NCBI GenBank assembly: GCA_963931445.1
Contig: OZ007016.1
Location: forward strand, 1,546 to 65,545
Source of the DNA: an uncultured Clostridia bacterium
GTDB taxonomy: Bacteria; Bacillota; Clostridia; TANB77; CAG-508
Reading direction: 5' to 3'
DNA: 64,000 nucleotides
Position numbers and translations under genes: made by a program. The notes beneath the pieces were generated by a model, which worked only from the letters and a program-made list of their open reading frames with translations, did not search any database and was not told the origin of the DNA. Below, piece by piece: positions 20,501-39,336 of the stretch; position 1 is the first letter of the stretch, and each line of letters starts with the position of its first letter.

Positions 20501-20593
20501 ATCATCCTTTAATGATTGATAATTATATCCTATTTTTAAAAATTGGATTGTTGCTGGTATTTTAACCCTTGTATCTTCATTAAACTTTTGCAT
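17537..20593 (-). CDS. hsdR: Type I restriction enzyme HsdR (1018 aa).
   Basis: N-terminal PD-(D/E)xK motif PDINVLINGIPLAFLEVKK. Helicase motif I GIIWHTQGSGKT, and the DEAH box VFFVDEAHRS. Confidence 0.9.
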   Translation of the reverse strand: MQKFNEDTRVKIPATIQFLKIGYNYQSLKDDKLDIDFNTKIFINRFKPAIEKINNREISYDEIKQLLDEINNLIRNNDLGKEFYYRLIKPQDKLRLIDFDNIENNDFAIVDELPFSITPDSDVGSFRPDINVLINGIPLAFLEVKKPNNEGGIQKEFKRMINDRLKNGAFKKYFNLIQIVAFSNNMEYEDSDEAEEVRAGSFYTTPNGNNTSFSFFREDDELYNLKYDYKEISEEEIKNITKDLGYDKKVCDTVEFKENLKDTKPCNSFITSVFDKERILYFLYYGILYVNEKVPQKQIMRYPQFFATRKIIDRLESGGKGGIIWHTQGSGKTALAAYSNRIIRDYYAKKNIVARFFFVVDRIDLLRQASSEFESRGFSVINCNNKAEFSNELNKSLSTKNLNDSIGEYCVVNIQKFEGEMPNAKNDYNANVQRVFFVDEAHRSYSKNGEFFKNLMICDANGIYIALTGTPLLSKKERSNLKFGDYIHKYFYDKSIADGYTLRIKKEDIDTVAKKEIKQNLDIEDNQLENKDVYESDAYISALGKFIERDFKNFRFQNTDNTIGGMIVCRTNEQARKVHKWFEKNSELKTGLVITDTADPTQSKINKENQLNFRNDTFPDLLVVNLMLTTGYDVKRLKKMYLLRGSHAQNLLQTISRVNRPYKSPNGKIYRYGYIVDFVDIEQEYNNTIEAYIKELEADINDNGENEGSLSGLVVGIDDINKKYQKYLEDLKDIIEDIDNLERFSKKLTNLNREALLKIRRLLNGIRDCETEFIISRVKDKYISAEESEKYKALRKATQERIDFINLSSDTVGMMDVISNEEVVEILYNFIKTKITILDLSKLDIESDPRIRDFVDTATEIQRVIKDNKNKEDIQVRKLNELLEEVFNKLNISDLDNMDELTEQLKEALEKAKEINEKNDELSNTYGGNFAFVKTYQDLTENEDIDQSIIKRVLRIIYEEIANFYDTDIFLVQGKKNFVDSVKQKITIKLFQEGLFEKISSIYDQMLNDLYKNIQLYK

Positions 20594-20792: not shown

Positions 20793-20987
20793 TTTATATC
20801 ACAAAATACTTTTTTTCTCAAGGAATGAGATAAGATATTTTATATTTTTCAAAATTCATTTTATTTTTATGTAATACAAATCACATCAACTTCAGATTTC
20901 AAAAATTTTCTAACTTTTTCTAAACAAAAATTATTACATACAACTTTAAATCTAGTATTACTAAAAAGACTACTATCTACCATATAA
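20793..20987. repeat. 195-bp direct repeat (left copy) flanking the IS1634-family element. Long target-site duplication.
   Basis: Identical to 22950-23144. It contains a duplicated copy of the 3' end of the minus-strand gene 23024..23353. Confidence 0.8.
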
Positions 20988-22949: not shown

Positions 22950-23144
22950 TTTATATCACAAAATACTTTTTTTCTCAAGGAATGAGATAAGATATTTTAT
23001 ATTTTTCAAAATTCATTTTATTTTTATGTAATACAAATCACATCAACTTCAGATTTCAAAAATTTTCTAACTTTTTCTAAACAAAAATTATTACATACAA
23101 CTTTAAATCTAGTATTACTAAAAAGACTACTATCTACCATATAA
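22950..23144. repeat. 195-bp direct repeat (right copy). Forms part of the native gene 23024..23353.
   Basis: Identical to 20793-20987. Confidence 0.8.
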
Positions 23145-23965
23145 TTAATCCAATCCATAATACTAAAATCAGCAAAAGGCATTGGAAAAATATATGTATA
23201 TGAATCTTCACCTTTTATGCAATACGTTTCATATTTATATCCTTTTACTCTATCAATATTTTCTCCAAATATATTAATTATTCTATTTTTCATATAATCT
23301 TCATCTACAATTTTTTTGAATATATTCCATATTTCTTTTTGATATAAAATCATATAATTCTCACTAAAATTTATATTTGTAAATTTTGGATGGTTTAGGA
23401 GCCATTCATCTTCTAAAAATATAATTGCGCCTCTAAAATCATTTTTATTTCTATCTAATTCTTTATCTATGTACTTTAGTTCTCTTGGTGTAATATCTTT
23501 ATGTAGAAAATAAACTATATAAGATCTTTTGTAAAAATCCTCATCAGCTTCTTGTCACCATCTTTTTTCTCTTGACATGACGCCAATAAATCTATTGCCC
23601 CTTTTGGTATAAGTATTTACACTACACCTCCAACTTGGCTCAAAGTACCATCCAGATAATTGTACTTTACAAGAAACATCGCTAATTCTTTCCATTCTCT
23701 TTTTATAAGTTTCATTTCTATTTATATTTCTATAGCCTAATCCTATTTTATTTAAATAGCTTTTGCCTTTTCTTCCTAATACAACCTTTCCATATAATCG
23801 TTCTACAAATTCACCTTTTGCTAAACTTGCCAATCTGTTTTTGTAATAGTATTTTGAATCATAAAACAATTTAACATTTTCATTTGTGATAATTCCATAT
23901 TCAGATAAATACATTATAAAATTAAAATCTCTATTTCTTAAACATATCCTCTTTTCCTTTTCCAC
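23024..23965 (-). pseudogene. Single ~313-codon reading frame interrupted by one in-frame TGA (at 23555-23557). Hypothetical prophage protein.
   Basis: ORFs 23555..23965 and 23024..23353 are in the same frame. The 201 nt between them are open in that frame and contain no start codon. Confidence 0.5.
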
Positions 23966-24238
23966 TTAAATCACCTCCTACCATTTTTACATTTCTGCCT
24001 ATCTTCCAACTTACCTCTATGCGACAGAAAGCACAAGATTACCATCTTGTGCCTCCAGTCGCCCTTACATGTATTTATATGTTTTTTCTGTTATATAATC
24101 CCTACCTATGTACAATTTTTTAGTATTTAAAATGTCGGTTTTTCATTATTTTTAAGTAGTTCTATGTTTATTAAAAAGTGTGATTTTTTGAAAGTCCCAA
24201 AAGTGTGACTAGTTGGATATTTTAAAATTGGTTAATAA

Positions 24239-24862
24239 TCACACTTTTTCAAAATATTTTTTTGGATTTATATTACAAATATTTTGAATATTTCTTTTTT
24301 CTCCAATAAATATTTTTATATAATTTTCTCTATCATTAATTCCTTCTAACATATAGCTTACATACTTAATATTATCATCTGTAATAAGTCCACCATAAAC
24401 AAATCCATTAAAAATATATCTTAAATCTCTATTATCTATATCCCAATTATTTCTTGGCACACTTACTTGTACTCTAATAATAACTTCTTTATTAGCGAAT
24501 AACCCTTTGTACTTTTCTCCTATTGCTTGGCAAGTATTCTCTAATCTTTTATTATTATAGGGTGTTCTTACTGGTGGCAATAATTCATGTATCTTAATTT
24601 TTAAAATCCCATTTGAATATTCACTTTCATACTGACTAATGCCATCTTCTTTTCCTGGTAAGGGTTCTTCTCCTATCAATGGTCTTTTTAGCTTTATACA
24701 TTTATATATTGCATTTCTAAACAACTCTGTTTTGTATAAAACTTGATATATATTGTGTTCATTTACATCATCCTGCATATATTCATTTGCAACACTTAAA
24801 AACTCACCTAATCTTTTTCTAAAGTTATCTCTATCATATGTTGCAATTCCTCTTTCAAACAT
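24239..24862 (-). CDS. Hypothetical prophage protein (207 aa).
   Basis: ORF downstream of the dnaC-like gene on the same strand. Confidence 0.45.
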   Translation of the reverse strand: MFERGIATYDRDNFRKRLGEFLSVANEYMQDDVNEHNIYQVLYKTELFRNAIYKCIKLKRPLIGEEPLPGKEDGISQYESEYSNGILKIKIHELLPPVRTPYNNKRLENTCQAIGEKYKGLFANKEVIIRVQVSVPRNNWDIDNRDLRYIFNGFVYGGLITDDNIKYVSYMLEGINDRENYIKIFIGEKRNIQNICNINPKKYFEKV

Positions 24863-24953
24863 TTTTACCTCCTTCCTAGCTATTTTTTATATTATCCTTC
24901 CTAATTTATATTCCATCACTATAAATAGCTACATTATTTTCGAATTTTATATT

Positions 24954-25829
24954 CTATAATCTTTTCCCTTTGCATTCCACTCTATAGCACATATTAGATA
25001 ATCTTGATATTATAGAATCTGTTGTTTTACATACTTTGTTTGGTATGCTTAATCTTTGTTTTAAAGCTTCCATATCATAATTTGTTGTTATAATAAATGG
25101 TAGCTCATTTATTATTCTTTCATTTATAATTGTAAATAATTTAGATAACAACCAATCATTCATTGGTTCTACTCCTAAATCATCTATAACTAATAAATCT
25201 ACTTTTGTATATAATTTTGTTAATTCACTTTCTGTATGATTCTTGTAACATATAGCATACTTTTCCACTAATTGTGTTAATGTTCCAAATATTATTGGTA
25301 CATTATTTTTTAATAATTCATTACATATCGCCATTGAAATATGTGTTTTTCCTGTTCCATTTTTTCCTACAAATATAATACCATTCTTGAAGTTTTTGAA
25401 ATCTGATATAAATTTCTCTGCTGCTAATTTCGTTTTCGAATTTTGTTCATTTGTAATAAAATTCTCTAAAGTTTTTTGTTTAAATTGTTCTGTTATAAAA
25501 TCTGTTCCATAATATTGTTTTATTTTTTTGTTGTATTCTTTTTTTCTATAATTCTCATATTGCCTCATTAATTCTTCTTGCAGTTTTTCTTTTGCCTTAT
25601 TTCTTTCTTCTATTGCCTGTTTACAATCACATTTTTCATTTTCTATAAATACATTTATTGTTTTGCTTATTGGATTTAATACTCCTCTTGGCTTTAAAAC
25701 TTTATTACAATACTTGCATCTTGTTTCTTCAGGTATTTTTGTTTTTATAGAATATCCATTTTGCAAAATTTCATCTAGATTATATAAAATCTTTGATTTT
25801 TCCATAACTCTGCTTTGCATAAATCCCAC
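24954..25829 (-). CDS. DnaC/IstB-like AAA+ helicase loader (phage replication protein).
   Basis: Walker A GKNGTGKTH and Walker B LLVIDDLG. Confidence 0.8.
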   Translation of the reverse strand: MGFMQSRVMEKSKILYNLDEILQNGYSIKTKIPEETRCKYCNKVLKPRGVLNPISKTINVFIENEKCDCKQAIEERNKAKEKLQEELMRQYENYRKKEYNKKIKQYYGTDFITEQFKQKTLENFITNEQNSKTKLAAEKFISDFKNFKNGIIFVGKNGTGKTHISMAICNELLKNNVPIIFGTLTQLVEKYAICYKNHTESELTKLYTKVDLLVIDDLGVEPMNDWLLSKLFTIINERIINELPFIITTNYDMEALKQRLSIPNKVCKTTDSIISRLSNMCYRVECKGKRL

Positions 25830-26256
25830 CTCCTTCTGTTTCTATTTCTTTTTTTAATTCTTTTTCTCTTTCTGTATCCACATTTTTTCCTATTTTTGTG
25901 GATTCATTTTTATCCTTTATCCCTTTCTCCTGTAAGTTTTGATACTTATTCCAATTTTTAATTTTATATCCATATTTATCTTGTACTATCATGCTATATT
26001 CCTGAAAAATATCTAGTGCATTCTCGATACTTTTCTGATTTCTACCCATATGATGTGCTAATGTTTCTATGGTAAAAAACTTGTTTTCACTTATTTTTAA
26101 ATATCCTCCAGATTCGCAATTTGCTGCTATTGCTAAACAATTTATAAAAATTACAATAAGTCTATCTCCATCTTTTTTTCTTTTGATTTGCTTGATTTTT
26201 TCGTTGTCAAAAAAATTATTGTACAACTTAAACCAATATCTCTTTCCCCCTTTCAT
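25780..26256 (-). CDS. Phage replisome organiser, N-terminal domain family (DnaD-like).
   Basis: The motif RYWFKLYNNFFD...LIVIFINCLAIAAN is typical of the phage replisome-organiser N-terminal region. It overlaps the DnaC-like ORF. Confidence 0.6.
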   Translation of the reverse strand: MKGGKRYWFKLYNNFFDNEKIKQIKRKKDGDRLIVIFINCLAIAANCESGGYLKISENKFFTIETLAHHMGRNQKSIENALDIFQEYSMIVQDKYGYKIKNWNKYQNLQEKGIKDKNESTKIGKNVDTEREKELKKEIETEGGGIYAKQSYGKIKDFI

Positions 26257-26294
26257 CAGTAATCACCACCTTTTTAGTAAAATATTTTTTAATT

Positions 26295-26534
26295 TTAAAA
26301 ATCATCAAAACTATATTTTACTTTTTTCTTTGGTTCTTCTAGACTATCTTGAATGTATTTGTCTAGAATTTCTTTTGTAAATAGTGTTTTCGATTCAATT
26401 TTGTAATATGGTATTTTCTTTTCTCTAACTAATTTACGAATTAACCAATATGAAATACCCAAATATTGTGCTGCTTCTACTGAATCTAAAACTCTTTTTT
26501 CTTTTGTATCTAGGTTTAATTTCTCACTATTCAT
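26295..26534 (-). CDS. Excisionase/MerR-like HTH DNA-binding protein (79 aa).
   Basis: LDSVEAAQYLGISYWLIRKLVREKKIPY matches the HTH_17/Xis family. Confidence 0.6.
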   Translation of the reverse strand: MNSEKLNLDTKEKRVLDSVEAAQYLGISYWLIRKLVREKKIPYYKIESKTLFTKEILDKYIQDSLEEPKKKVKYSFDDF

Positions 26535-26637
26535 ACTATCGCCTCCTTTTCTTTTCTCATTATGCGTACATAATATAATATTTTTTTAATTTTGTAAATA
26601 CTTTTTTGAGATTTTTTATAAATTTTTTTATTTTTAT

Positions 26638-26668
26638 TGTTTACAAATCGTACTTTTTTGTGTATAAT
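26638..26668 (+). promoter_or_regulatory. Sigma-A-type promoter for the XRE gene (TTTACA, 17-bp spacer, TATAAT), divergent from the xis-like gene.
   Basis: tttacaaatcgtacttttttgtgtataat. Confidence 0.45.
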
Positions 26669-26699
26669 GTTTTTAGTTTGTAAGGGGGAAATTATTATA

Positions 26700-27680
26700 A
26701 TGGATGAGTTTAATTTTGGTAATCGTTTGAAAGAATTGCGTAAATCATATGATATTACACAAGCACAACTTGCTGAAAGTTTAGGCGAAAGAAGGGCTAC
26801 TTTATCAAATTACGAAAACAAAAATGTATATCCAGGATTTAATATGCTAATAAAATTAGCTGATTTTTTTCACGTTTCTGTTGATTATTTAACAGGAAGG
26901 ACTGATGATTATGAGATTAATAAAAATAATATAGAAGATACATTTTATTGGATTAAGATTTCTAATCCAATACCTTATGAAAAAAATAAACATGGAATTT
27001 ATGCATTATCAAAAGATACTGATATTGAATTTTACGATTTATCAAGTTTAAAGGAAAAATACACTCGAATTTATTTGCCTTTTCTAGGATGTGCTCCAGA
27101 TGCTAATTCTCATTTAAAAGAATGTTATGACTTTTTATCTGAATTTGGCTTTTTGGGTGCTACAGAATACAATGATAAATATGAAAATGTTTCTATGTTT
27201 AAGAAACAATGTCCTGGAATTTATAAAATAAATGGTCAATTTAATATTTCACCTATGAATTTATTAGTAGATTTAGTTATGACAAATCCTAATTTATTTA
27301 GTGCATCTGATGAAGATATATCATTCATGAAAGAAAATGCTCTTATGGGATATCGAGAAACAGTTCATGATGTTGAATACATGGCTAATGAAATGAGAAA
27401 TTTGATAACTTTATTTCTACTTTACCCTAATGTATTTTTATCAAAAGTTAATGATAAGCTTAGAGATATTAACTTTTATTATGATACTTCTTATAAAAGA
27501 AAACTAACTTTTTCTTCACTTCTTTCTTATATGTATTATGAATTGGTGGAAGATTATATTAATGGTTATTATCCTTATCAGTGTAGAAAATGTGGCAAGT
27601 ATTTTTTATCTAGAGTAAAAGATAATCCAGAATTACAACATTTCTGCGATGATTGTAGAAAACAAAAATCCTTATTATAA
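26700..27680 (+). CDS. XRE-family HTH transcriptional regulator with a C-terminal CxxC...CxxC zinc ribbon.
   Basis: HTH LKELRKSYDITQAQLAESLGERRATLSNYE. C-terminus YQCRKCGKYF...CDDCRKQK. The likely true start is the ATG at 26700, preceded by an aagggggaaatt RBS. Confidence 0.75.
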   Translation: MDEFNFGNRLKELRKSYDITQAQLAESLGERRATLSNYENKNVYPGFNMLIKLADFFHVSVDYLTGRTDDYEINKNNIEDTFYWIKISNPIPYEKNKHGIYALSKDTDIEFYDLSSLKEKYTRIYLPFLGCAPDANSHLKECYDFLSEFGFLGATEYNDKYENVSMFKKQCPGIYKINGQFNISPMNLLVDLVMTNPNLFSASDEDISFMKENALMGYRETVHDVEYMANEMRNLITLFLLYPNVFLSKVNDKLRDINFYYDTSYKRKLTFSSLLSYMYYELVEDYINGYYPYQCRKCGKYFLSRVKDNPELQHFCDDCRKQKSLL

Positions 27681-27738
27681 TGAAAATAATAAGATATAAT
27701 TTCATTTATAATGAACAAGTAATTGTAGGAGGTAACTT

Positions 27739-28623
27739 ATGATAGTAAAAAAAGCTGGAACTATCTTATTAAATTTAACATTAAAACAAATTGGCTTGGT
27801 ATATAGAAATAATAATAATGATTGTTCTTTTCCTAAAGGACACCTCGAAAATGGTGAAATACTTGAGCAATGTGCCATTAGAGAAACTGAAGAAGAAACT
27901 TTAAGAACAAATCATTTATTGATAAATAAAGAAATTTATATTTTAAAATACACTACCCCATCAGGAGAAAACGTAGAATGTTATTATTATATATCAATAG
28001 ATGATGGTGCAACATCAAAAAATATAGATTTAAAAGATCAAGAAACTTTAAAATGGACTTGTCCTAGCGATGTAGAAAATGCATTGTCTTATGATAATTT
28101 AAAAGTACTATGGAAAAAAATAAAAAATCCAATTATCAGTATATTGGAGAATGAAGGTACTATATCTCCTGCTATTCTGACAGATTTAGGAATATGCCCT
28201 ACATGTTATGATAAAGAAAATAATAATTGTTTGTATGGAGATATTTCTGATAAACTTCTTTTTGAAAATGATAAATTCGAAATTTTTTTAGTAAGTAATC
28301 CAAGAGCAGCTGGTCATACAATAGTTTCGACAAAAAGACATTATAAAAATATGATGGACATTCCTGATGATTTATGTAGTAAAATATTTATTTTTTCCAA
28401 GAAAGTAATGAACATTTTACAAAATGTTTATAACGCAGAAAGTATATATCTTTGTACTATGTGTGATGGTCCAATGAATCATTTCCATATACAGCTTATA
28501 CCTAGATATGCTTTTGAAAAAAGAGGTTCTAAAAATTTTGTTAAACCAAGAAAAGACTATATAACAGATAAGGATAAAATTGAAAAAATTAGAAATCTTC
28601 TAAAACTGGAGGCCATATGCTAA
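27739..28623 (+). CDS. NUDIX hydrolase fused to a HIT-like (HxHxQ) domain.
   Basis: Nudix box GHLENGEILEQCAIRETEEETL. C-terminal MNHFHIQLIPR histidine-triad-like motif. Confidence 0.7.
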   Translation: MIVKKAGTILLNLTLKQIGLVYRNNNNDCSFPKGHLENGEILEQCAIRETEEETLRTNHLLINKEIYILKYTTPSGENVECYYYISIDDGATSKNIDLKDQETLKWTCPSDVENALSYDNLKVLWKKIKNPIISILENEGTISPAILTDLGICPTCYDKENNNCLYGDISDKLLFENDKFEIFLVSNPRAAGHTIVSTKRHYKNMMDIPDDLCSKIFIFSKKVMNILQNVYNAESIYLCTMCDGPMNHFHIQLIPRYAFEKRGSKNFVKPRKDYITDKDKIEKIRNLLKLEAIC

Positions 28624-29087
28624 AAATTTATAATATAAAAGAAAAGCAAGAATTTTTAAGAGAAGTTGCTACACTTACTCAAAAAGAATGGGGTAAAAAA
28701 ACTAATTCAGAAGAAGAATTTGAGGCAAAGATAAATAAAAAAACATCTAAAATTATTAATAACTTTGACAATCCTTTATATTGTAAATTAATTTTATTGG
28801 ATGATGATATTTTAATAGGCTTTATATCTATATTTCCAACTGATGGAGATGAAAGGAAAGATTTATCACCATGGTATGCCACTATGTATGTAAAAGAAGA
28901 ATTTAGAGGAAAAGGATATTCTAAAATACTTAATAATGCAATTCTAGAAGAAGCTAAAAATCGAGGATTTAAGAAATTATATCTAAAAACAGACTTAATT
29001 AATTATTACGAAAAATTTGGTGCTACATTTTTGGACACTTTAAGTAACGGAGAAAAATTATATTATTTTGATTTAGAGGAGGTTTAA
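28617..29087 (+). CDS. GNAT-family N-acetyltransferase (copy 1).
   Basis: YVKEEFRGKGYSKILNNAILEEAKNRGFKKLYL, the acetyl-CoA binding motif A region. Confidence 0.7.
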   Translation: MLKIYNIKEKQEFLREVATLTQKEWGKKTNSEEEFEAKINKKTSKIINNFDNPLYCKLILLDDDILIGFISIFPTDGDERKDLSPWYATMYVKEEFRGKGYSKILNNAILEEAKNRGFKKLYLKTDLINYYEKFGATFLDTLSNGEKLYYFDLEEV

Positions 29088-29091
29088 CCAT

Positions 29092-29514
29092 ATGGACAAA
29101 TTTAAAGAAATAAGACCAATAGCTTTAGGTCTTGCTATCAAAAACAATAAGCTACTAGTTTCAGAGGGTTTTGACAAGGTAAAAAACGAAACATTTTACA
29201 GATGTTTAGGTGGTGGTATTGAATTTCTAGAAAAGAGTGAAGAAGCTTTAAAACGTGAGTTTTTGGAAGAAATCAATGTTGATATTACAGTTAAAGATTT
29301 TTTAGGAATATCAGAAAATATCTTTACATATCAAGGAAAAAAAGCTCATGAATTAATTTTATTTTACTCAATTGAAATATCTGATGAAAATTATCAAGAA
29401 GAGTATAAAGTAATAGATGATCATGGTGAAACTATTGCTAAATGGATAGATATTAATGAATTTAAGAGTAAGAACAAAATACTTTATCCTGAAGAAGTAT
29501 TTAAATATATTTAA
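29092..29514 (+). CDS. NUDIX hydrolase (140 aa, copy 1).
   Basis: Nudix box GGGIEFLEKSEEALKREFLEEINV. Confidence 0.75.
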   Translation: MDKFKEIRPIALGLAIKNNKLLVSEGFDKVKNETFYRCLGGGIEFLEKSEEALKREFLEEINVDITVKDFLGISENIFTYQGKKAHELILFYSIEISDENYQEEYKVIDDHGETIAKWIDINEFKSKNKILYPEEVFKYI

Positions 29515-29557
29515 TTTATATCTATTCCCCTACCACATGAAAGGAGGTGATGAAGGT

Positions 29558-30066
29558 GTGGTAGGAAATATCGAAAAGCGTGGAGAGAATTCATATAGAT
29601 TAAGAGTTTCTGCTGGCTATACTGATGACGGAAAAAGAATTATGTACAAAAAAACTGTTCAAGCTAGAAATAAAAGTGAGGCTAGAAAAGAATTAGCTCT
29701 TTTTATATCCGAAATAGAAACTGGACAAGCACTGTCTGCTAAAAAGATGCGTTTTAGAGATTTTGCTGATTTTTGGATTAACAATTATGCTATTCCAAAT
29801 TTATCTCCAAAAACCTATGAAAGATATAAAAGTATGTTAAGATCAAGGATTCTCCCCTATCTCGGCAACATGTATTTGGACAAAATACAACCAATGCAAT
29901 TAATGTTCTTGTACCAGGAATTAAGTGAAGCAACATATACTAGAAAAAATGTTGAACATAAATTATCTCCCAAAACTGTATTAGAGCATCATAGGTTGTT
30001 ACATTCAATGTTACAACAAGCAGTATATTGGCAAATGATTCCATATAATCCAGCATCAAGAGTTAT
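29558..30066 (+). pseudogene. Truncated integrase paralog. Only the N-terminal ~170 aa are present.
   Basis: VVGNIEKRGENSYRLRV...LEHHRLLHSMLQQAVYWQMIPYNPASRV parallels the N-terminus of the integrase at 4825..6021 (SIEKRGKDSYRLVV...LEHHRLLHAMLTKAVYWQMIVTNPADRV). Similarity ends where the convergent gene 30063..30326 begins. The ORF tail after that is low-complexity nonsense. Confidence 0.7.
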
Positions 30067-30326
30067 GAGTTTTTTTCTATATTTTCTATTATTTTCTTTG
30101 CATAAGAACATTCAGCAATTATCCCTCTATTTTGTATTATTGCATTTTCTATTATTTTTTCTACTAATCTTCTTGCAATTCCTTTTCCTTGATATAAAGT
30201 ACTTACTTCTGTATGAACTATATTCCAACATCCTTCATTTTCTATATATACACATTCTCCTACTTTAATATTATCATCATATGCTACTGATTTCTTATTT
30301 TCTTCTTCAAATTTTACTTTAATCAT
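30063..30326 (-). CDS. Small GNAT-like acetyltransferase (87 aa).
   Basis: QGKGIARRLVEKIIENA motif A-like region. Size is typical of the minimal GNAT family. Confidence 0.5.
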   Translation of the reverse strand: MIKVKFEEENKKSVAYDDNIKVGECVYIENEGCWNIVHTEVSTLYQGKGIARRLVEKIIENAIIQNRGIIAECSYAKKIIENIEKNS

Positions 30327-30649
30327 AATACTTCCTCTTATTTTAACTTATATGAAATTATGTATTATATTATATCACTGATTTTATAATAAGTACATAA
30401 TTTTAAATATTCCTAGTGTATTAATTTATATATTAATTTCATATACAGTCAAATATATAAATTCTAATGTCAAATTTAATTAATTATTTTGAATTAGTCA
30501 CCAAATAGTTAAAATAAGCTAAAATCACTAGTATTTTACACAAAAACATTATATAATATAATCAAATTTTTTCTGGTTTTATAAATATTTAATTATTATC
30601 AATTATAATAGTAAAATAGAAAACTGTATGTTTCCAATTTTACTAAAAA

Positions 30650-31123
30650 AATTAGAGAATGAAGGTACTATACTATTCTGACAGATTTAGGAATATGCCC
30701 TACATGTTATGATAAAGAAAATAATAATTGTTTGTATGGAGATATTTCTGATAAACTTCTTTTTGAAAATGATAAATTTGAATGTTTTTTAGTAAGTAAT
30801 CCAAGAGCAGCTGGTCATACAATAGTTTTAACAAAAAACATTATAAAAATATGATGGACATTCCTGATGATTTATGTAGTGAAATATTCACTTTTTCCAA
30901 GAAAGTAATGAACATTTTACAAAATGTTTACTGCTCAGAAAGTATATATCTTTGCACTATGTGTGATGGTCCAATGAATCATTTTCATATCCAACTTATA
31001 CCTCGTTATGCTTTTGAAAAAAGAGGTTCTAAAAATTTTATTAAGCCAAGAAAAGACTATATAGAAGATATGGATAAAATTGAAAAAATTAGAAATATTC
31101 TAAAACAGGAGGCAATATGCTAA
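30650..31123 (+). pseudogene. Degraded duplicate of the HIT-like half of 27739..28623.
   Basis: The DNA is colinear with 28141-28623 but has a 7-bp and a 1-bp deletion, so only the last 90 codons remain as an ORF. The NUDIX half is absent. Confidence 0.7.
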
Positions 31124-31614
31124 AAATATATAATATAAAAGAGAAACAAGAATTCTTACGAGAAGTTGCTATACTTACTCAAAAAGAATGGGGCAGTAAA
31201 ACAGATTCAGAAGAAGAATTTGAGGCAAAGATAAATAAAAAAACATCTAAAATTATTAATAACTTTGACAATCCTTTATATTGTAAATTAATTTTATTGG
31301 ATGATAATATTTTAATAGGCTTTATATCTATATTTCCAACTGATGGAGATGAAAGGAATGATTTATCTCCATGGTATGCCACTATGTATGTAAAAGAAGA
31401 ATTTAGAGGAAATGGATATTCTAAAATACTTAATAATGCAATTCTAGAAGAAGCTAAAAATCGAGGATTTAAGAAATTATATCTCAAAACAGACTTAATT
31501 AATTATTACGAAAAATTTGGTGCTACATTTTTAGAAAATTTAAGTAGTGGAGAAAAATTATATTATTTTTCAATCTTAAACTTAAAATTGGAGGATATTT
31601 ATGTATATAAATAA
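31117..31614 (+). CDS. GNAT-family N-acetyltransferase (copy 2, near-identical to 28617..29087 with a divergent C-terminus).
   Basis: Protein near-identical over ~150 aa. Confidence 0.7.
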   Translation: MLKIYNIKEKQEFLREVAILTQKEWGSKTDSEEEFEAKINKKTSKIINNFDNPLYCKLILLDDNILIGFISIFPTDGDERNDLSPWYATMYVKEEFRGNGYSKILNNAILEEAKNRGFKKLYLKTDLINYYEKFGATFLENLSSGEKLYYFSILNLKLEDIYVYK

Positions 31615-31763
31615 AGGAAAACATGATATTTTAATTTTTCCAAAGTTTAAAATTTAGATTCATTTGAGCATGATTTTAAAACAATAGTTGATGAAGTTTC
31701 AATTGAATTAATCGGAGAACATGAAGAATCAATTATAATAAAAAATATAAAATTAGGAGGTTA

Positions 31764-32528
31764 TTGATGAATAATATAGAATATTTAGATAAAATTGTAG
31801 AAGTAAAAATTGATAGACCTATAGGAAGTTGTCATCCAAATTATCCAGATCATATTTATCTAGTAAATTATGGATATGTTCCAAGTACAATAAGTGGAGA
31901 TGGTGAAGAATTAGATTGTTATGTATTAGGAGAATATAAACCATTGAAAGAGTATAAAGGGAAGTGTCTTGCAGTAATACATAGATTAGATGACAACGAT
32001 GATAAATTAATTATAGCTCCAGAAAATAAAACTTTTACTAATAACGAAATAAAATTACTAACAGATTTTCAAGAAAAATTTTATACAAGTGAAATAATTA
32101 GAAGTTCAAATTATTTAGAATTTAATAAAAACATACCTGAATTATCTGTCACTAATTTAGAAAATAGTTTAAAATTTTATAAAACTGCTGGATTTAAACT
32201 TGAATATGATAGACCAGAAAACAAATTTGCATTTATAAGTTTAGGTGAAATTCAATTTATGCTACAGGAATTTTCTATTACTGATAAATGGAATATTGCC
32301 CCTATTACCTATCCTTTTGGTAATGGAATAAACTTTCAGTTAGAGGTGAATAATATAGGAGACATATATAGTAATTTAAAAAATGCAAATTATGAAATAA
32401 CATTTGATATTGAAGAAAATTGGTATAGACAAGATAATAAATTATTAGGTAATAAAGAATTTTTAGTACAAGATCCTGATGGATATTTATTAAGATTTTC
32501 AGAAGATTTAGGAGAAAGGAAAATTTAA
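31764..32528 (+). CDS. Fusion protein: N-terminal inorganic-pyrophosphatase-like domain and C-terminal glyoxalase/VOC-like domain.
   Basis: NYGYVPSTISGDGEELDCYVLG resembles the family I PPase motif NYGFIPxTxxxDGDPLDVLV. The C-terminal part has a glyoxalase-like pattern (FYKTAGFKLEY...LVQDPDGYLLRF). Confidence 0.5.
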   Translation: MMNNIEYLDKIVEVKIDRPIGSCHPNYPDHIYLVNYGYVPSTISGDGEELDCYVLGEYKPLKEYKGKCLAVIHRLDDNDDKLIIAPENKTFTNNEIKLLTDFQEKFYTSEIIRSSNYLEFNKNIPELSVTNLENSLKFYKTAGFKLEYDRPENKFAFISLGEIQFMLQEFSITDKWNIAPITYPFGNGINFQLEVNNIGDIYSNLKNANYEITFDIEENWYRQDNKLLGNKEFLVQDPDGYLLRFSEDLGERKI

Positions 32529-32530
32529 TT

Positions 32531-33295
32531 ATGCAAGATTTAGAATATAAAAGGTATGAAGAAATTGGGAATTGGGATTTTTCAGATATAGAATATACTG
32601 TAGAACAAGATAGCGATTGGAATTTTTATAAAGAAATATCCCAATACTCTAAATCTAATTCTCTAATACTAGATTTAGGGACAGGCGGTGGAGAAAAAGC
32701 TTTAGCACAAATGCCAGATGTTGGAATGATAATTGCAACTGATTTTTCTCCTAAAATGATTGAAACAGCTAATATAAATAAGAAAAATTATCCTGATAAA
32801 AAAATTAAATTTGTAACAATGGATAATCTTAATATGAAATTCCCTAATAATTTATTTGATATTATAACAGCAAGACATACTATCATTGATGCTAAACAAA
32901 TATATAATTGTTTATCTAATAATGGAATGTTGATTATTGAAGGAGTCGATAAATATGATTGTTGGGAACTTAAAAAACTTTTCAATAGAGGTCAATCATT
33001 TAATGATGATATTTCAATCAGACAAAAAGATTACAATGATTTAAAAAGAGCTGGATTTTCTGAAATAAATCTACAAGAAATAGTACAATATGAATATTAT
33101 AAAACTGCAAATGACTTATTTGCTTTACTTCTTAAAACTCCTATTTTAAATAACTTTTCAGAATTAGATACTTCAAATAATACTCATAAAAATCAAATTG
33201 AATCCGATTTATTTAACCAATATATTTCTCAACATACTACAGATAAAGGGATAGAATTAAAAAGAGTTTTATATGGAATAGTTGCTAAGAAATAA
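32531..33295 (+). CDS. Class I SAM-dependent methyltransferase.
   Basis: Motif I LDLGTGGGEKAL, with an acidic residue at the end of beta-2 (IATDFS). Confidence 0.65.
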   Translation: MQDLEYKRYEEIGNWDFSDIEYTVEQDSDWNFYKEISQYSKSNSLILDLGTGGGEKALAQMPDVGMIIATDFSPKMIETANINKKNYPDKKIKFVTMDNLNMKFPNNLFDIITARHTIIDAKQIYNCLSNNGMLIIEGVDKYDCWELKKLFNRGQSFNDDISIRQKDYNDLKRAGFSEINLQEIVQYEYYKTANDLFALLLKTPILNNFSELDTSNNTHKNQIESDLFNQYISQHTTDKGIELKRVLYGIVAKK

Positions 33296-33323
33296 CTAAT
33301 TATTAATAAATAAGGAGGTCCTT

Positions 33324-33746
33324 ATGGACAAATTTAAAGAAATAAGACCAATAGCCTTAGGTCTTGCTATCAAAAACAATAAGCTACTAGTTTCAGAAGG
33401 TTTTGACAAAGTAAAAAACGAAACATTTTACAGATGTTTAGGTGGAGGTATCGAGTTTTTAGAAAAAGGTGAAGAAGCTTTAAAACGTGAGTTTTTGGAA
33501 GAAATCAATATTGATATTACAGTTAAAGATTTTTTAGGAATATCTGAAAATATCTTTACATATCAAGGAAAAAATGCTCATGAATTAATTTTATTTTATT
33601 CAATTGATATATCTGATGATAATTATCAAGAAGAATATAAAGTAATAGATGATCATGGCGAAACTCTTGCAAAATGGTTAGATATTGAAGAATTTAAAAA
33701 GAAAAATAAAATTTTATATCCTGCAGAAGTGTTTAAGTATCTTTAA
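33324..33746 (+). CDS. NUDIX hydrolase (140 aa, copy 2).
   Basis: Near-identical to 29092..29514. Confidence 0.75.
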   Translation: MDKFKEIRPIALGLAIKNNKLLVSEGFDKVKNETFYRCLGGGIEFLEKGEEALKREFLEEINIDITVKDFLGISENIFTYQGKNAHELILFYSIDISDDNYQEEYKVIDDHGETLAKWLDIEEFKKKNKILYPAEVFKYL

Positions 33747-33874
33747 TTAAATCTATATAAAAATATTGCCATACTTATATTTATAAAAGATTAATATCAT
33801 AAAATGTACAGAACCCAAAGACTTTTCAATTTCTTGGTTTCTGTACATTTTAGTACTATATTTATTTTTTATCT

Positions 33875-36275: not shown

Positions 36276-37478
36276 TTATTTACTAAATCTAGTTGTATGT
36301 TTCAATAAATATTGTTGCATGTTTGAATTAAAATCAAAATCATTAATTTTAAACCCTAAAAAATTTTCACCTTTTGGTATTTTTTCATCATTAAAAAAGT
36401 ATCCTTGTGTAATTGAATTTTTTATGTATTCAATTTGATTTTTATTTAATGTATCTGAAGCATATAAATATCTTTCTTTAAAATAAATTAATAAATAATC
36501 AAATAATAAGTGGTGATTTGCACATAACCAAATTCCATTGTCTGCATCAACAATCTGATTTGTCTTTTCTTCTTCACTAACTGAAGAATGTAATATATCT
36601 GTTGAGCTATAAATATGTGCTCCTTGTATAACTTTTTCAATATCACATCCACATAAATAACATTTCTTTTCCTTATATTTTTGCAATAAATTATAATGAA
36701 ACAACCTTGTATTTCTTTTAGCAATAACTCTTTCATCATTACTTTCAAAATCCATTCTGTCATCATTTAGTTCAACACCAATATTTTCTAAAATATATCT
36801 GTTTGCAGGATCAATATCTGCTAAATGATTTTTATCTGTTTCATTAACATTATATAACTTTATATTTTTACCTGGTACTAATCTAGATAACGCTAGGCAA
36901 ATTGCTGTAGTTTCTCTTCCATTTGCTCCATAACTTTTACCATATACAGAAATTTCATCATCATTTTCTTCAAATGTTGTTGAATTATTACTCGAATTTC
37001 GTTTGCTTAAACTTAGTCTATATGTACGCATTTGTTTATAATCGTTAAAAGGAGTAGTATAGTCAAATAATATAGCTTTTTCTGAAACTTTTACCTTATC
37101 TAAATTTAAAATTTTTATTCCTCCTGTTAGTAATAATTTATATGAAAAAATAGCAAATGGAGGATGTGAAGTAGAAAAATCTCTAATGTAATATTCAAAT
37201 GTTTTTTTAGGATTTTTCTCTTCTAAATAATGCTGATATGCTGAAGGAAAGTTTTGAAGAATAAAAGCATTTCTACTTTCACTTGCAATTTTTCTACTTA
37301 GGCAAATATATTTTATTGTATCAGCTATCTTTAGTTTTATGTATTGTCCTGAATTATGCCCTCTAAAATCCTCTTTAACTATAAAATCCACATTTCCTAT
37401 TGATCTATTTACTATATCTTTATATTCATCTTTAGATATGTCTCCTAATAAATGTGTAGGAACAAATAGTTCGACCAT
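36276..37478 (-). CDS. Putative restriction endonuclease with a C-terminal HNH motif.
   Basis: CYLCGCDIEKVIQGAHIY...DNGIWLCANHHLLFD (C-x2-C...H...N...H-H). Immediately downstream of the methyltransferase gene, with a 1-bp gap. Confidence 0.55.
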   Translation of the reverse strand: MVELFVPTHLLGDISKDEYKDIVNRSIGNVDFIVKEDFRGHNSGQYIKLKIADTIKYICLSRKIASESRNAFILQNFPSAYQHYLEEKNPKKTFEYYIRDFSTSHPPFAIFSYKLLLTGGIKILNLDKVKVSEKAILFDYTTPFNDYKQMRTYRLSLSKRNSSNNSTTFEENDDEISVYGKSYGANGRETTAICLALSRLVPGKNIKLYNVNETDKNHLADIDPANRYILENIGVELNDDRMDFESNDERVIAKRNTRLFHYNLLQKYKEKKCYLCGCDIEKVIQGAHIYSSTDILHSSVSEEEKTNQIVDADNGIWLCANHHLLFDYLLIYFKERYLYASDTLNKNQIEYIKNSITQGYFFNDEKIPKGENFLGFKINDFDFNSNMQQYLLKHTTRFSK

Positions 37479-37479
37479 T

Positions 37480-39336
37480 TTATTTCACCTCATAATTAAT
37501 AACTATTATCTCATTTCTATTTTTTCTTGCTTTTCCTTGGTATTCTATAATTTTATATTTGTTTTCTTGTATCCATTTTTTCAAAATATTATTACTTTTT
37601 CCTTTAAACTCTAAAATATTAGACAACATAAATTTTACAGATTTATCATCAAGTTTCTTTAAAAAATTAAGTAACCTAATTTCATCACTTTCGTTCCAAC
37701 CATTAAATCCTCTTTTACCATCATTATAACTACCTAATGTAATTAAATATGGTGGATCGCAATATACAAATGTATCTTTATTTATGTATTCTTCTACTTT
37801 TTCAAAATCTTTTGAAAGAAAAATAACATTTTTTTCTTTTAATCTTCTACAAAAAGAAATTATTTTTTCTAAAATACAATCATTATACCCTGCCTGACCA
37901 ACTGGATTATTATATCCATATGAGGAATTAAATCTAATTTGTTGTTGATAACCAAATAATATTAGTAAATATAATAATTTTGGATCTCGATTATCTATTG
38001 GCATATTATTATACAATTCTCTTATTTTTAAATATTGTTCTTTAGCTCCTTTTTCAAGCTTATATTTCTTTATCATTTTTTCAATATATTTATATAGTTC
38101 AATGGTGTCAATATCTCTAAACATTTCTAAAAGTTCTCTAACCTTAAAGTTACAATCATTGTATACAGTTTGTTCAGCATTAAAATTTATACCTACATTA
38201 AAACCTCCGCCAAATAAATCAATCATTCTCTTATAATTTTTTGGTGAATTATCTTTTAAGAACTGAACCATATCTGCTTTTCCTCCAATAAAATTTAATG
38301 GAGATGCATAATTAATATACTGTTTTTCTTTTTTTTCTACATAAAATAAATATTCATAATGTTCTCCTTCTTTTTCTGCTTTTGAATTTAAATATTTTCT
38401 ATATTTAATTTTAATAAATTTTAATGTTTCTGGTTTTCCATGTCTTTTAAGAACACTTTCAATATATTCTTTAGACATAATTCCATCAGAACTATAACTT
38501 AATATAATATGCTTAAAATCAGCTCTTGCTATAATTTTTTCAAATTCAATTTCAGCATTTCCTTTTTTAGAAAAATCTGAAGTTTTATTTGACATATCTC
38601 TAGCACCAGTAACTCCTTTTATCTCAGGATTATCATACAATGCAATTGTTTCTAATAAATGATATTGAACTGAATATTGATTTTTGGTATATGGCGGATC
38701 AATATATAATATATCTCCACTTATATCATTTATTAACTTTTCAGCTTCTTTATTATAAACTTCATTTTCGAATTTACTGCTTTCTTTTTCCATTTCAATA
38801 GGAATAAATTTCATGGGTTTTACTGCTCTTGGATCCCATTTTTTTAAATATGCTCCATAAACACCGGCGACATTTGCAACTTTTGAAACAGATTCTAATA
38901 ATGAAGCTATAAGATAATAATATTCATCATCATTTATCTTATCTTCTAAATGCCATTTTTCAATTTTATTTCTTATAAAATCAATTCTCTGTGCATTTTC
39001 TTCGCTAAAATACATCCTTTCGCTATTTCCAGTTGAATAGTTTTCATATATAAAACCCTTTAATAAATTTGTTTTATCATTAAATATTTCAAAAGGATCT
39101 TTCTCTAATTTTTCAAATTTTAAATTTGGAGTACAGAGTTTTGCTCTTGAAATAACATATGACATATATAAATTATCATTTGATATTATTCTGTATTTAT
39201 CTTTAAAATAATTTCCAACTGTTGCTGTTCCACTAAATAAATCACAGAATGTATAGTTTTCATTATTTAATCTTAAAGATTCTATTAAATTTTCAATTTC
39301 GTTTAGTATCTTTTGTTTATTACCAATATATCTCAT
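37480..39336 (-). CDS. Tandem double N6-adenine DNA methyltransferase (two T4-Dam/D12-class domains, FokI-methylase-like).
   Basis: First domain: RYIGNKQKIL, DLFSGTATVG, DPPYTKNQY. Second domain: NFIGGKADMV, IDLFGGGFNVG, DPPYLITLGSYNDG. Each parallels T4 Dam YTGNKQSLL / DLFCGG / DPPY. Confidence 0.8.
   Translation of the reverse strand: MRYIGNKQKILNEIENLIESLRLNNENYTFCDLFSGTATVGNYFKDKYRIISNDNLYMSYVISRAKLCTPNLKFEKLEKDPFEIFNDKTNLLKGFIYENYSTGNSERMYFSEENAQRIDFIRNKIEKWHLEDKINDDEYYYLIASLLESVSKVANVAGVYGAYLKKWDPRAVKPMKFIPIEMEKESSKFENEVYNKEAEKLINDISGDILYIDPPYTKNQYSVQYHLLETIALYDNPEIKGVTGARDMSNKTSDFSKKGNAEIEFEKIIARADFKHIILSYSSDGIMSKEYIESVLKRHGKPETLKFIKIKYRKYLNSKAEKEGEHYEYLFYVEKKEKQYINYASPLNFIGGKADMVQFLKDNSPKNYKRMIDLFGGGFNVGINFNAEQTVYNDCNFKVRELLEMFRDIDTIELYKYIEKMIKKYKLEKGAKEQYLKIRELYNNMPIDNRDPKLLYLLILFGYQQQIRFNSSYGYNNPVGQAGYNDCILEKIISFCRRLKEKNVIFLSKDFEKVEEYINKDTFVYCDPPYLITLGSYNDGKRGFNGWNESDEIRLLNFLKKLDDKSVKFMLSNILEFKGKSNNILKKWIQENKYKIIEYQGKARKNRNEIIVINYEVK

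Follow-up and report, generated by a model that had tools for sequence, protein, structure and literature searches.

The 64,000-nucleotide stretch of Clostridia DNA analysed here (hereafter the window) carries two neighbouring sets of small-enzyme genes, cassette A (27739-29514) and cassette B (30651-33758), with 91-97% DNA identity between them. We regard it as rather probable that they are two diverged paralogues of one accessory array, the element-borne A standing beside the resident B, and that they serve as housecleaning or detoxification cargo. B would be a resident array of chromosomal type, in which a small GNAT gene is followed by HIT, GNAT, 2H, PPase/VOC, MTase and NUDIX genes, and A would be a compact NUDIX-HIT, GNAT, NUDIX version, flanked by the XRE regulator and the tyrosine integrase of an element. 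The two would lie side by side because a small phage-like element with one copy, crippled today, landed beside a resident copy.

Gene content of the two cassettes

On the forward strand, cassette A comprises a NUDIX-HIT fusion of 294 aa (27739-28623; PF00293 and PF01230), a GNAT acetyltransferase of 156 aa (28617-29087; Pfam Acetyltransf_1, 1.7e-13) whose start overlaps the stop of the fusion gene by 7 nt, and a stand-alone NUDIX hydrolase of 140 aa (29092-29514; Pfam); open reading frames and Pfam domains agree with the three genes that the first-pass annotation had named. The fusion gene is intact, and its product carries a Nudix box, CPTC, NPRxxGH and MNHFHIQLIPRY (HxHxQ; HFHIQ), with a pLDDT of 88.9 for the AF2 model. 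GNAT-A reaches only 25.7 bits against PF13302 and is not clearly RimL/MccE-like. The stand-alone NUDIX is the commonest recurring partner of NUDIX-HIT in other genomes.

Alignment bore out the earlier observation that cassette B repeats cassette A, since positions 28143-29069 are 94% identical to 30651-31569, and 29077-29525 are 91% identical to 33313-33756. The decay reported for B is likewise apparent: HIT-B (30628-31123, forward strand) is a pseudogene in which both deletions described previously, of 7 bp and 1 bp, are visible against A. Its NUDIX half had been called missing, which holds as a description because HIT-B repaired in silico is a 167-aa open reading frame with its own ATG at 30628. 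GNAT-B (31117-31614, forward strand; 165 aa; Pfam) is intact save for a replaced and extended C-terminal tail in the alignment. This divergent C-terminus, already recorded in the first pass, is real and is explained by read-through into an overlooked remnant of a 2H/LigT-type phosphoesterase (31602-31764, forward strand). The remnant is a pseudogene with a start changed from ATG to ATA and an internal deletion of ~380 bp that joins codons ~1-17 to the last ~37; at the nucleotide level it is 92-95% identical to both ends of an intact 165-aa gene of another species (locus L016, 3340-3837), a type of protein that matches Pfam 2_5_RNA_ligase2. The presence of a PPase-VOC fusion (31764-32528; PF00719 and PF00903) and of a class I SAM-dependent methyltransferase of 254 aa (32531-33295), both on the forward strand, was confirmed with Pfam. 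The PPase-like domain is truncated, and the VOC half, of glyoxalase/bleomycin-resistance fold, matches the PDB sequences 2rk9 and 6p29. The last gene encodes an intact NUDIX hydrolase of 140 aa (33324-33746, forward strand; Pfam).

The integrative element carrying cassette A

Cassette A lies downstream of, and on the same strand as, an XRE-family HTH regulator with a DUF6076 C-terminal region (26700-27680, forward strand; Pfam HTH_3 and DUF6076), and upstream of a tyrosine integrase fragment (29537-30064, forward strand), in agreement with its location on a mobile phage-like element. The earlier placement of both cassettes between a regulatory module and an integrase stands for A and fails for B, because the integrase fragment separates the two. 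The regulator is divergent from the HTH_17 and replication genes, has PHROG matches to repressors, and is 99.2-99.4% identical at the nucleotide level to its counterparts in L006 and L007, loci from two further Clostridia MAG species that carry this element; it is probably the repressor of the element. Cassette A itself is 95-99% identical to the copies that these two carry.

The element backbone (23024-26534, reverse strand; Pfam), with 85-96% nucleotide identity to L006 and L007, encodes on that strand an HTH_17 protein (26295-26534; Pfam), a Phage_rep_org_N replisome organiser (25780-26256; Pfam), a DnaC/IstB-like helicase loader (24954-25829; Pfam) with ~30% identity to loaders of temperate Firmicutes phages, the product of a 207-aa gene (24239-24862), and a 313-aa-type gene that an in-frame stop interrupts (23030-23965; internal stop within a single-frame tblastn match). 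Overall, window positions 22950-30063 correspond to L007 5144-12324 with 95.6% identity (96.4% for L006), the flanks differ, and the block common to all three is about 7-9 kb. Pfam annotation revealed no structural or lysis genes in the window. Given this absence and the short shared block, the term prophage used earlier gives way to that of a small phage-like integrative element, which lacks virion genes and seems to have moved recently between species. Its right end is ambiguous: the Nud-to-c24 interval also varies, a search for att repeats of the element found none, and no empty site came to light. On the left flank are AbiL, a Type I R-M system and an IS, together with a short replication module.

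Three lesions, read from the sequence, indicate that the element is now immobilised after coming to adjoin array B. The integrase is cut at codon 176: the fragment keeps its Arm-DNA-binding and SAM-like domains (Pfam) and shares 97.7% amino-acid identity with residues 1-176 of the L007 integrase, which is full-length at 402 aa; the catalytic domain has been lost together with the att-like region downstream, and homology to L007 stops at 30063. The 313-aa gene bears its nonsense codon. Moreover, the left end of the element (20793-23144; self-blast and comparison with L007) is split by an IS of 1,962 bp (20988-22949) with a DDE_Tnp_1 transposase gene (21101-22852; Pfam), 12-nt terminal inverted repeats AATTTGACAGTT, and a perfect direct target duplication of 195 bp (20793-20987 and 22950-23144; 100% in self-blast). 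Both 195-bp copies match L007 5144-5327, where the sequence is single-copy and free of the IS. We take this IS to be a putative relative of the IS1634 group (IS4 family), with which it shares a DDE_Tnp_1 transposase, here of 583 aa, short terminal inverted repeats and the long target duplication. Members of this group generate long target duplications.

Chromosomal arrays related to cassette B

Cassette B is organised like the chromosomal small-enzyme arrays of related species. At its GNAT-2H-PPaseVOC junctions, identity to the chromosomal array of L016, where these genes follow in the same order, is 92-95%, which leaves the insertion proposed earlier without support. Orthologues of the PPase-VOC fusion (72% aa identity) and of the methyltransferase (79-80%) occur in the arrays of L016, and of L018 and L068, respectively. 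The small GNAT gene that separates the integrase fragment from cassette B (30063-30326, reverse strand; Acetyltransf_CG, 87 aa; Pfam, 1e-15) is assigned to the resident array; a relative with 72.5% nucleotide identity adjoins a stand-alone HIT gene in L041.

Such arrays seem to be widespread among uncultured gut Clostridia, as part of their chromosomes. NUDIX-HIT orthologues at 58-78% identity are chromosomal and lie in small-enzyme arrays beside yraN, comM and dprA (L008, L016-L020, L068 and L082), with CPT-like and AAA_18 kinases, HD, GNAT, VOC and MTase enzymes as neighbours. Within array B, the lesions show decay of the HIT and 2H genes, the former now made redundant by cassette A.

Predicted activities

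The closest Foldseek matches of the Nudix half are the MutT1/Rv2985 diadenosine polyphosphatase, the Ap6A hydrolase Ndx1, Ap4A hydrolases and RppH, and those of the HIT half are Hint-type proteins. The HIT motif is fixed as HxHxQ and the N-terminal GH is kept. Every curated-library match of the cassette enzymes lies far under its family cut-off (e.g., 33 bits for NUDIX-HIT against NCBIfam MutT1, with a cut-off of 475). Independent fusions of NUDIX/HIT with three GNAT lineages (P0039, P0107 and P0102) suggest a common nucleotide-linked substrate for these enzymes.

The cassette enzymes would act on nucleotide-linked small molecules. The Nudix domains would cleave pyrophosphate bonds of the NDP-X or dinucleoside-polyphosphate type, the Hint-like HIT domain, with its nucleophile His kept and its third His replaced by Gln, would remove NMP from nucleotidyl adducts, and the GNAT would acetylate an amine on the same or a related substrate. 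In sum, this would be a housecleaning or detoxifying function, with aminoacyl-nucleotide-type antimetabolites or ApnN as examples of its targets. As accessory genes, they would hitch-hike on a mobile element, and housecleaning that benefits the host cell would therefore benefit its resident element too. In microcin C systems, the GNAT MccE and the HIT protein MccH each detoxify the processed antibiotic (PMC7157772). A nucleotide-antibiotic role, which the first-pass annotation had listed as an alternative, fits the evidence better than the anti-defence role that it preferred.

Alternative explanations

An in-situ segmental duplication had been proposed for the two cassettes. A recent tandem duplication, with one copy decaying and the PPase-VOC and methyltransferase genes inserted later, would agree with direct, same-strand repeats ~2.5-4.2 kb apart and with pseudogenes in one copy, yet it is scarcely credible, given that NUDIX-HIT A is far closer to its L006/L007 copies (99.3% nucleotide identity) than to B (~93%). 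The dS between A and B is 0.15-0.31 (0.17 for GNAT; 0.31 for NUDIX, at 92% nucleotide identity), and in the HIT half it exceeds the dS separating A from the element copies of other species by a factor of 5-15. The accompanying dN/dS of 0.14-0.30 (0.26 for HIT, 0.30 for GNAT and 0.14 for NUDIX) suggests that A and B diverged under purifying selection. Moreover, B shares its internal organisation with L016, and an integrase fragment and an unrelated GNAT stand between the copies. The genes might also be selectively neutral hitch-hikers, fluid arrays recombining into nearby mobile DNA with no role for the element or the niche. We consider this unlikely: array gene order and content are indeed extremely fluid between species, and several array genes are pseudogenes here, in L016 and in L068, but the genes of cassette A are intact and, with dN/dS of 0.12-0.46 (from few substitutions), appear to be under purifying selection. 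In addition, the catalytic motifs are invariant in the 37 aligned members of the NUDIX-HIT family, and the same three-gene cassette is kept on the element in three MAGs.

The anti-defence proposal, in which the NUDIX-HIT, GNAT and NUDIX enzymes of an element or phage would destroy CBASS, Thoeris or Pycsar signals or NAD-derived products during infection, is unsupported and, in our judgement, very improbable. It could draw on the phage-like element carrying cassette A, on a host island rich in defence systems, and on the 2H phosphoesterase of related arrays, whose fold is that of the anti-CBASS enzyme Acb1. However, among 2.9 M IMG/VR contigs the NUDIX-HIT family is represented only by one stand-alone HIT, which lies in host DNA flanking a prophage, 50,697 phage records gave only four distant HIT-only matches, PHROG matches are generic, and no library search places any cassette enzyme in a known defence or anti-defence family. 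The chromosomal orthologues beside core genes come close to the core setting with metabolic neighbours that the first-pass annotation had named as telling against its proposal, and the Nudix half is nearest to ApnA hydrolases rather than ADPR enzymes (Foldseek). In temperate phages, genes downstream of and co-oriented with the repressor are expressed in the integrated state; this position of cassette A implies such expression and not an early lytic one. Phage Nudix proteins are predicted to degrade ADPr-derived signals, but phage Nudix genes are found mostly in myoviruses of medium and jumbo size (0.25% of small phages) and fall into the NudE and NadM clades, which counts against this view of the element cargo (PMC9503650). 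A conflict module of another kind, namely a defence system, an off-switch of nucleotide-signalling immunity or an element-immunity factor like Pif, a NUDIX protein of integrative elements in actinomycetes, is quite unlikely. The close NUDIX-HIT clade (75-99% identity) recurs in defence-island-like surroundings (AbiL, R-M I and R-M II in the window; Kiwa, AbiE and R-M I in L001; R-M I, HEPN and JAB/E1 in L007), which are also compatible with a conflict-related role, as is the lysogeny-expressed position beside the repressor. Precedents are ThsC, a HIT protein of Thoeris type II that has been hypothesised to switch the signal off (PMC8565338), and the AICE NUDIX 'for prevention of redundant transfer' (PMC11706625). 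Nevertheless, the weak PADLOC matches (PDC-S07, 5e-9; ThsC, 5e-4) are no stronger than generic Pfam NUDIX/HIT ones, only 6-7 of 136 immediate neighbours across ~80 species match defence-candidate models (RhuM-type) with no fixed partner, more distant orthologues sit by yraN-comM-dprA in housekeeping-type arrays, and no sensor or effector architecture is present.

Comparison with known systems

Housecleaning cargo on a small element, the reading we prefer, recalls temperate-phage morons and PICI-like satellites in the same-strand position of cassette A between XRE regulator and tyrosine integrase, the divergent HTH switch, the phage-type replication module, and the size of ~7-9 kb without virion genes. 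In contrast to these, the analysis identified neither a helper phage nor packaging genes, interference genes or att sites, the cargo belongs to a family otherwise found in chromosomes and not in viruses, and the element is defective. The AICE NUDIX Pif is likewise a standing gene of a small integrative element, and XRE regulator, tyrosine integrase and replication initiator are common to both elements (PMC11706625); the phylum differs, the present element has no FtsK/Spd transfer module, and the likeness is at superfamily level.

Among enzymes, the ApnA/MutT1-type Nudix proteins (M. smegmatis MutT1, M. tuberculosis Rv2985 and T. thermophilus Ndx1) are the best structural match for residues 1-140, at an identity of only ~25%, and the catalytic Glu/Arg of the Nudix box are invariant in the fusion family. 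MutT1 is also a two-domain protein, in which a histidine phosphatase, a second phosphohydrolase domain, takes the place of the HIT domain found here. The HIT half resembles the Hint branch in its fold and nucleophile His, with HxHxQ instead of the HxHxH of Hint or the HxHxK of MccH, and it keeps the N-terminal GH that MccH has lost. No mcc-like biosynthetic genes were found near the cassettes; as with MccH and the MccE C-terminal domain, however, HIT and GNAT occur here in one cluster, and are even fused in relatives, and inactivation of aminoacyl-adenylate antibiotics is known for each of the two classes (PMC7157772).

Anatomy of the two cassettes

The ORFs and domains of the cassettes were identified from an ORF listing and Pfam scans, and homology between cassettes A and B was assessed by repeat finding, pairwise alignment and self-BLAST. 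Cassette A encodes a NUDIX-HIT fusion with the motif HFHIQ (27739-28623), a GNAT (28617-29087) whose start overlaps the stop of the fusion gene, and a 140-aa NUDIX protein (29092-29514), all three assigned by Pfam. An XRE regulator (26700-27680) precedes it, and an integrase fragment limited to the Arm and SAM-like domains (29537-30064) follows, with a small minus-strand GNAT (30063-30326) directly after. Two blocks relate the cassettes: 28143-29069 of A is 94% identical to 30651-31569 of B, and 29077-29525 of A is 91% identical to 33313-33756 of B, homology ending 10-12 nt past the stop codon of the 140-aa NUDIX gene. In B, the interval between the two blocks contains genes that Pfam assigned to a PPase-like/VOC fusion (31764-32528) and, after it, to a SAM methyltransferase (32531-33295).

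The HIT gene of cassette B (HIT-B) is broken by 7-bp and 1-bp deletions, seen in the alignment; after repair in silico it gives a 167-aa ORF with an ATG at 30628. We considered whether HIT-B could be a native stand-alone HIT, which its size and ATG would fit, yet it shares 93-97% nucleotide identity with the HIT half of the fusion. Because true stand-alone HITs show 60-73% amino acid identity, and because HIT-B is without a Shine-Dalgarno sequence, truncation or gene conversion is favoured. Moreover, comparison with the chromosomal array of another genome (L016) and Pfam revealed a 2H/LigT phosphoesterase pseudogene in cassette B (31602-31764), with its start changed from ATG to ATA and ~380 bp of its middle deleted; each of the two remaining ends matches the intact 165-aa gene of L016 at 92-95% identity.

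The features described in the first-pass annotation (ORFs, domains, the two homology blocks and the HIT-B deletions) are thus real and far beyond chance. The divergent C-terminus that it noted in the GNAT of cassette B is also genuine, but its source, read-through into the 2H/LigT pseudogene, had been overlooked, and the integrase remnant is present but falls between the cassettes. In the window, which belongs to a 764-kb long-read metagenome contig of an uncultured Clostridia bacterium and has a G+C content of ~25%, a promoter scan did no better than chance (65 hits against 64.9 expected) and terminators were not detected; operon boundaries in the region are those that we infer.

Origin of cassettes A and B

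Cassette B had been taken for a segmental duplicate of cassette A. Nei-Gojobori estimates between A and B gave dS values of 0.154 for the HIT half, 0.174 for the GNAT and 0.307 for the 140-aa NUDIX, with dN/dS ratios of 0.26, 0.30 and 0.14, respectively. On these substitution patterns, the genes of A and B were functional while they diverged. Among species-representative genomes, a scan picked out two MAGs (L006 and L007) carrying copies of cassette A, to which A is 99.3% identical in the fusion gene, 99.2-99.4% in the XRE gene and 95-99% in the GNAT and 140-aa NUDIX genes. The HIT half of A shares 99.2% nucleotide identity with these copies but 92.7% with B, and the GNAT and 140-aa NUDIX genes behave likewise. 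A and B are therefore not each other's closest relatives, which contradicts a duplication in situ.

Genes orthologous to NUDIX-HIT (58-78% amino acid identity) recur in arrays that also encode the 140-aa NUDIX protein, GNATs, HD proteins and kinases of the AAA_33 and AAA_18 families, and that in some cases include genes for the PPase-VOC protein, the methyltransferase and the 2H enzyme. The arrays directly adjoin yraN (UPF0102), comM (Mg-chelatase-like) and dprA. In L016, the order is NUDIX-HIT, internally deleted GNAT, 2H, kinase, PPase-VOC, kinase, yraN, comM, dprA, and the GNAT/2H junction has the same layout as in cassette B. Since B shares the organisation and this junction with a chromosomal array that has a PPase-VOC gene, the earlier view that the PPase-VOC and methyltransferase genes had been inserted into a duplicate before the second NUDIX does not hold. 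To judge from gene order, cassette B would represent the older, chromosomal organisation and cassette A a compact variant. Decay was also observed elsewhere, namely in the GNAT of L016 (3200-3340, between the NUDIX-HIT and 2H genes) and in another locus, L068 (7325-7828), where the NUDIX-HIT is truncated to 167 aa.

The compact version of the array rides on a small phage-like integrative element. We propose that this element landed beside the resident array, its arrival juxtaposing cassettes A and B, and that redundancy between the copies then permitted gene decay. The HIT-B frameshifts, recent relative to the A/B divergence, fit loss through redundancy. Campbell-type homologous integration through the cassette was also considered and rejected, since the order backbone, A, truncated integrase, small GNAT, B does not match a single crossover.

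"Duplication in a prophage" is thus wrong in both mechanism and context, while the description of the sequence was largely right. The locus is an ordinary, if well resolved, instance of accessory genes on the move, and brings to light an uncharacterised NUDIX-HIT (HxHxQ) family. It illustrates in detail how the accessory arrays of small enzymes in gut Clostridia move, and shows that repeats on the same strand, even next to phage-like genes, are not necessarily morons or products of duplication.

A defective, satellite-sized element carries cassette A

The stretch from 22950 to 30063 is common to L006 and L007, with 95.6-96.4% nucleotide identity, the same gene order and unrelated flanks. On the left of the cassettes, the window encodes, in order, an integrase and its small partner, AbiL, a Type I R-M system that includes a recombinase, an IS, and a short module made up of a replisome organiser, a DnaC-like loader, an HTH_17 protein and an XRE-DUF6076 protein. 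On their right are a DUF4190 protein, a beta-propeller protein and an HNH/D12 R-M pair, along with ordinary chromosomal genes. Neither virion genes nor lysis genes nor tRNAs occur in the window, and L007 carries the same small element, likewise without virion genes.

The copy of the element in the window has four defects. Its integrase is cut at codon 176, while that of L007 is full length (402 aa) with its catalytic domain. The spacer downstream of the integrase has been lost with its doubled motif GTSCCCAATTWGTSCCCAA, which accompanies pairs of an integrase and a small ORF (c24) in L007 and at the second integrase of the window. The left end, at 20793, is interrupted by a 1,962-bp IS (20793-23144 with its duplicated target) with 12-nt inverted ends and a DDE_Tnp_1 transposase. 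Finally, a 313-aa gene (23030-23965), intact in L007, aligns in a single frame but is divided by an in-frame stop into 109-aa and 136-aa ORFs. The IS is flanked by a perfect direct target duplication of 195 bp, unusually long for such a duplication and reminiscent of IS1634-type elements.

The element is phage-like and satellite-sized. Its integrase, divergent regulators, replication module and lack of virion genes correspond to a phage satellite or PICI-like layout (size range taken as ~8-15 kb), and its DnaC-like loader is ~30% identical to loaders of temperate Firmicutes phages. When patterns built from the DnaC-like and XRE proteins were run against IMG/VR, no close relatives emerged, single-protein patterns reaching close relatives only, and neither Pfam nor PHROG had a match for the 207-aa and 313-aa proteins. 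No convincing att direct repeats turned up at the ends of the element in L007, and look-ups of an empty site with the PPase-VOC protein gave only contigs organised like the window or short ones that break off within the repeat.

Across 24902-30063, identity to L006 and L007 is uneven, at 99.2-99.8% for the XRE and NUDIX-HIT genes and 95-99% for the GNAT and NUDIX genes, while the replication genes are just 85-95% identical at the protein level among the three genomes, which implies recombination within the element. The L007 element abuts, on its left, a Type I R-M operon (hsdM, a HEPN protein and hsdS; 1844-5108) that is not homologous at the DNA level to that of the window, and, on its right, a JAB and ThiF/E1-like pair (18214-20128), another defence-island-like setting.

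Variable intervals and neighbouring genes

At 4810-6832, the window has a second, full-length tyrosine integrase, which shares 51% amino acid identity with the L007 integrase, followed by a small c24-like ORF; the spacer holds GTSCCCAATTWGTSCCCAA twice (0.03 expected by chance). The same layout occurs in L007 (11798-13920), and another locus, L001, has one copy between its 140-aa NUDIX gene and c24. This spacer is possibly an att/arm-site or operator region. The interval from the 140-aa NUDIX gene to c24 is a variable hotspot: it is empty in L001 (8891-9985, ~380 bp), holds the integrase in L007 (11354-13920), and in L012, from another genome, contains a 3' half-NUDIX remnant and four unrelated minus-strand genes (10909-15044). 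No core repeat was found at the 3' end of the NUDIX gene as a candidate attachment site of the integrase-c24 island.

Other genes of the window include an AbiLi/AbiLii abortive-infection pair (6965-10581; PADLOC 1e-98 and 5e-22), adjoined by a SWIM-domain protein with a weak PDC-S62 match. Within 12342-20593, the Type I R-M operon (hsdR, hsdM, hsdS) is accompanied by a tyrosine recombinase gene (13533-14528), by additional partial hsdS-like ORFs and by a 107-bp repeat (12342-12448 and 14582-14688, 98%), which suggests phase-variable specificity. A double D12 adenine methyltransferase of 618 aa has an HNH_2 endonuclease as its partner (36276-39336); contigs from other samples (L087 and L088) have the methyltransferase called as two genes (174 and 435 aa), which reflects either a frameshift or a polymorphism between strains. 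Two very large ORFs on the minus strand (51561-54512 and 60544-63630; 1392 and 1064 aa) share ~3 kb at 73% nucleotide identity and encode paralogous giant proteins.

Absence of a prophage and possible roles in conflict

The enzymes had been proposed to be anti-defence morons of a prophage. The window has no structural or lysis genes, the flanks consist of AbiL, R-M, IS and chromosomal genes, and the locus is not a prophage. The moron-like position, in the sense of compact cargo between repressor and integrase that the element's own cycle does not require, stands for cassette A but not for cassette B, which lies outside the element. Genes co-oriented with and downstream of a repressor are, in temperate-phage organisation, those expressed in the integrated state; this placement would suit cargo benefiting the host, not early lytic counter-defence.

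A scan of 2.9 M IMG/VR contigs with the invariant family motifs gave a single true relative, a stand-alone HIT sitting outside its prophage, left of the integrase, with genes for mini-RNase III and an RbgA-type GTPase next to it. In INPHARED (50,697 phage records), tblastn found four distant HIT-only matches; megablast of the region against phage records found nothing. A census of 136 immediate neighbours in ~80 species counted 136 different Pfam families, led by AAA_18, RhuM, NUDIX, PS_pyruv_trans and GNAT, then HD, with no phage structural genes among the 25 commonest. Homology to Acb1, Apyc1, Tad1/2 or NARP-type anti-defence proteins had no specific assignment in PHROG, Pfam or NCBIfam. Given this near-absence from viral collections, the generic library matches and the varied neighbours, a true anti-defence role is unsupported and very improbable.

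A role in defence, as an off-switch or in element immunity is somewhat less remote, though still unlikely. In the window, L001/L002 and L007, members of the close clade lie in regions resembling defence islands; actinomycete integrative elements keep a NUDIX immunity factor (PMC11706625), and a HIT protein accompanies some Thoeris systems (PMC8565338). PADLOC matches to the cassette proteins (PDC-S07 at 5e-9 and 2.5e-5, ThsC at 5e-4) were weak, no better than generic domain matches, and came with no ThsA or ThsB partners, so that the cassette is not assigned to a known defence system; among neighbours, PADLOC listed just 6-7 RhuM-type candidates. It is likewise doubtful that the satellite-like element captured NUDIX-HIT, GNAT and NUDIX genes from chromosomal arrays for conflict, for instance to degrade a nucleotide immune signal or a toxin, or for element immunity or exclusion in the manner of Pif, a NUDIX protein of AICEs. 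If this were so, HxHxQ NUDIX-HIT enzymes would form a new class whose substrate is related to conflict.

Predicted chemistry of the NUDIX-HIT family

Membership of the Nudix superfamily was judged by the box GX5EX7REUXEEXGU, with its catalytic Glu and Arg, and by the Nudix fold. The fusion and both 140-aa proteins match PF00293. In 37 diverse family members, G34, E37, R48, E49, T50, E52 and T54 of the box are invariant and E40, E51 and E53 are conserved in at least 90%; the CPTC, NPRxxGH and MNHFHxQLIPRY signatures are also invariant. The AF2 model of the fusion is confident (pLDDT 88.9), and its N-terminal half resembles ApnA-type structures (MutT1, Rv2985 diadenosine polyphosphatase, Ndx1, Ap4A hydrolases and RppH), with Nudix matches to E 5e-10.

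The C-terminal half is Hint-type in its fold and in its best structural and sequence matches, but the HxHxHxx triad of the Hint branch is replaced by an invariant H248-F-H250-x-Q252, with Gln instead of the third His. This HxHxQ motif fits the GalT/Ap4A-phosphorylase branch; no GalT-type structure was among the top 50 Foldseek matches, and the NCBIfam ATP adenylyltransferase model scored 19.9 bits against a cut-off of 290. The PHROGs, PADLOC and NCBIfam libraries gave only generic superfamily matches for the cassette proteins.

NUDIX and/or HIT domains have been fused independently to GNATs of three different lineages, and this recurrence argues for action on a common substrate class. We consider, with moderate confidence, that the enzymes act in housecleaning or detoxification of nucleotide-linked small molecules, the identity of the substrate being a prediction. 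Being abundant (>1,700 relatives) and uncharacterised, with recurrent GNAT fusions, the family is a sensible choice for biochemical work; knowledge of its substrate would provide an annotation for a gene widespread in gut bacteria and decide between housecleaning, nucleotide-antibiotic resistance and immune-signal turnover.

A GNAT, MccE, and a HIT enzyme, MccH, are each known to detoxify the aminoacyl-adenylate warhead of microcin C (PMC7157772). The window has no mcc genes, and the NUDIX-HIT protein is not an MccH-type enzyme, since its HIT motif is neither HxHxH nor HxHxK. MccH, found in the setting of an mcc cluster, combines HxHxK with a compensating Glu and has lost the conserved N-terminal His (PMC7157772), whereas the NUDIX-HIT protein has Gln in place of Lys and, unlike MccH, keeps an invariant N-terminal G192-H193.
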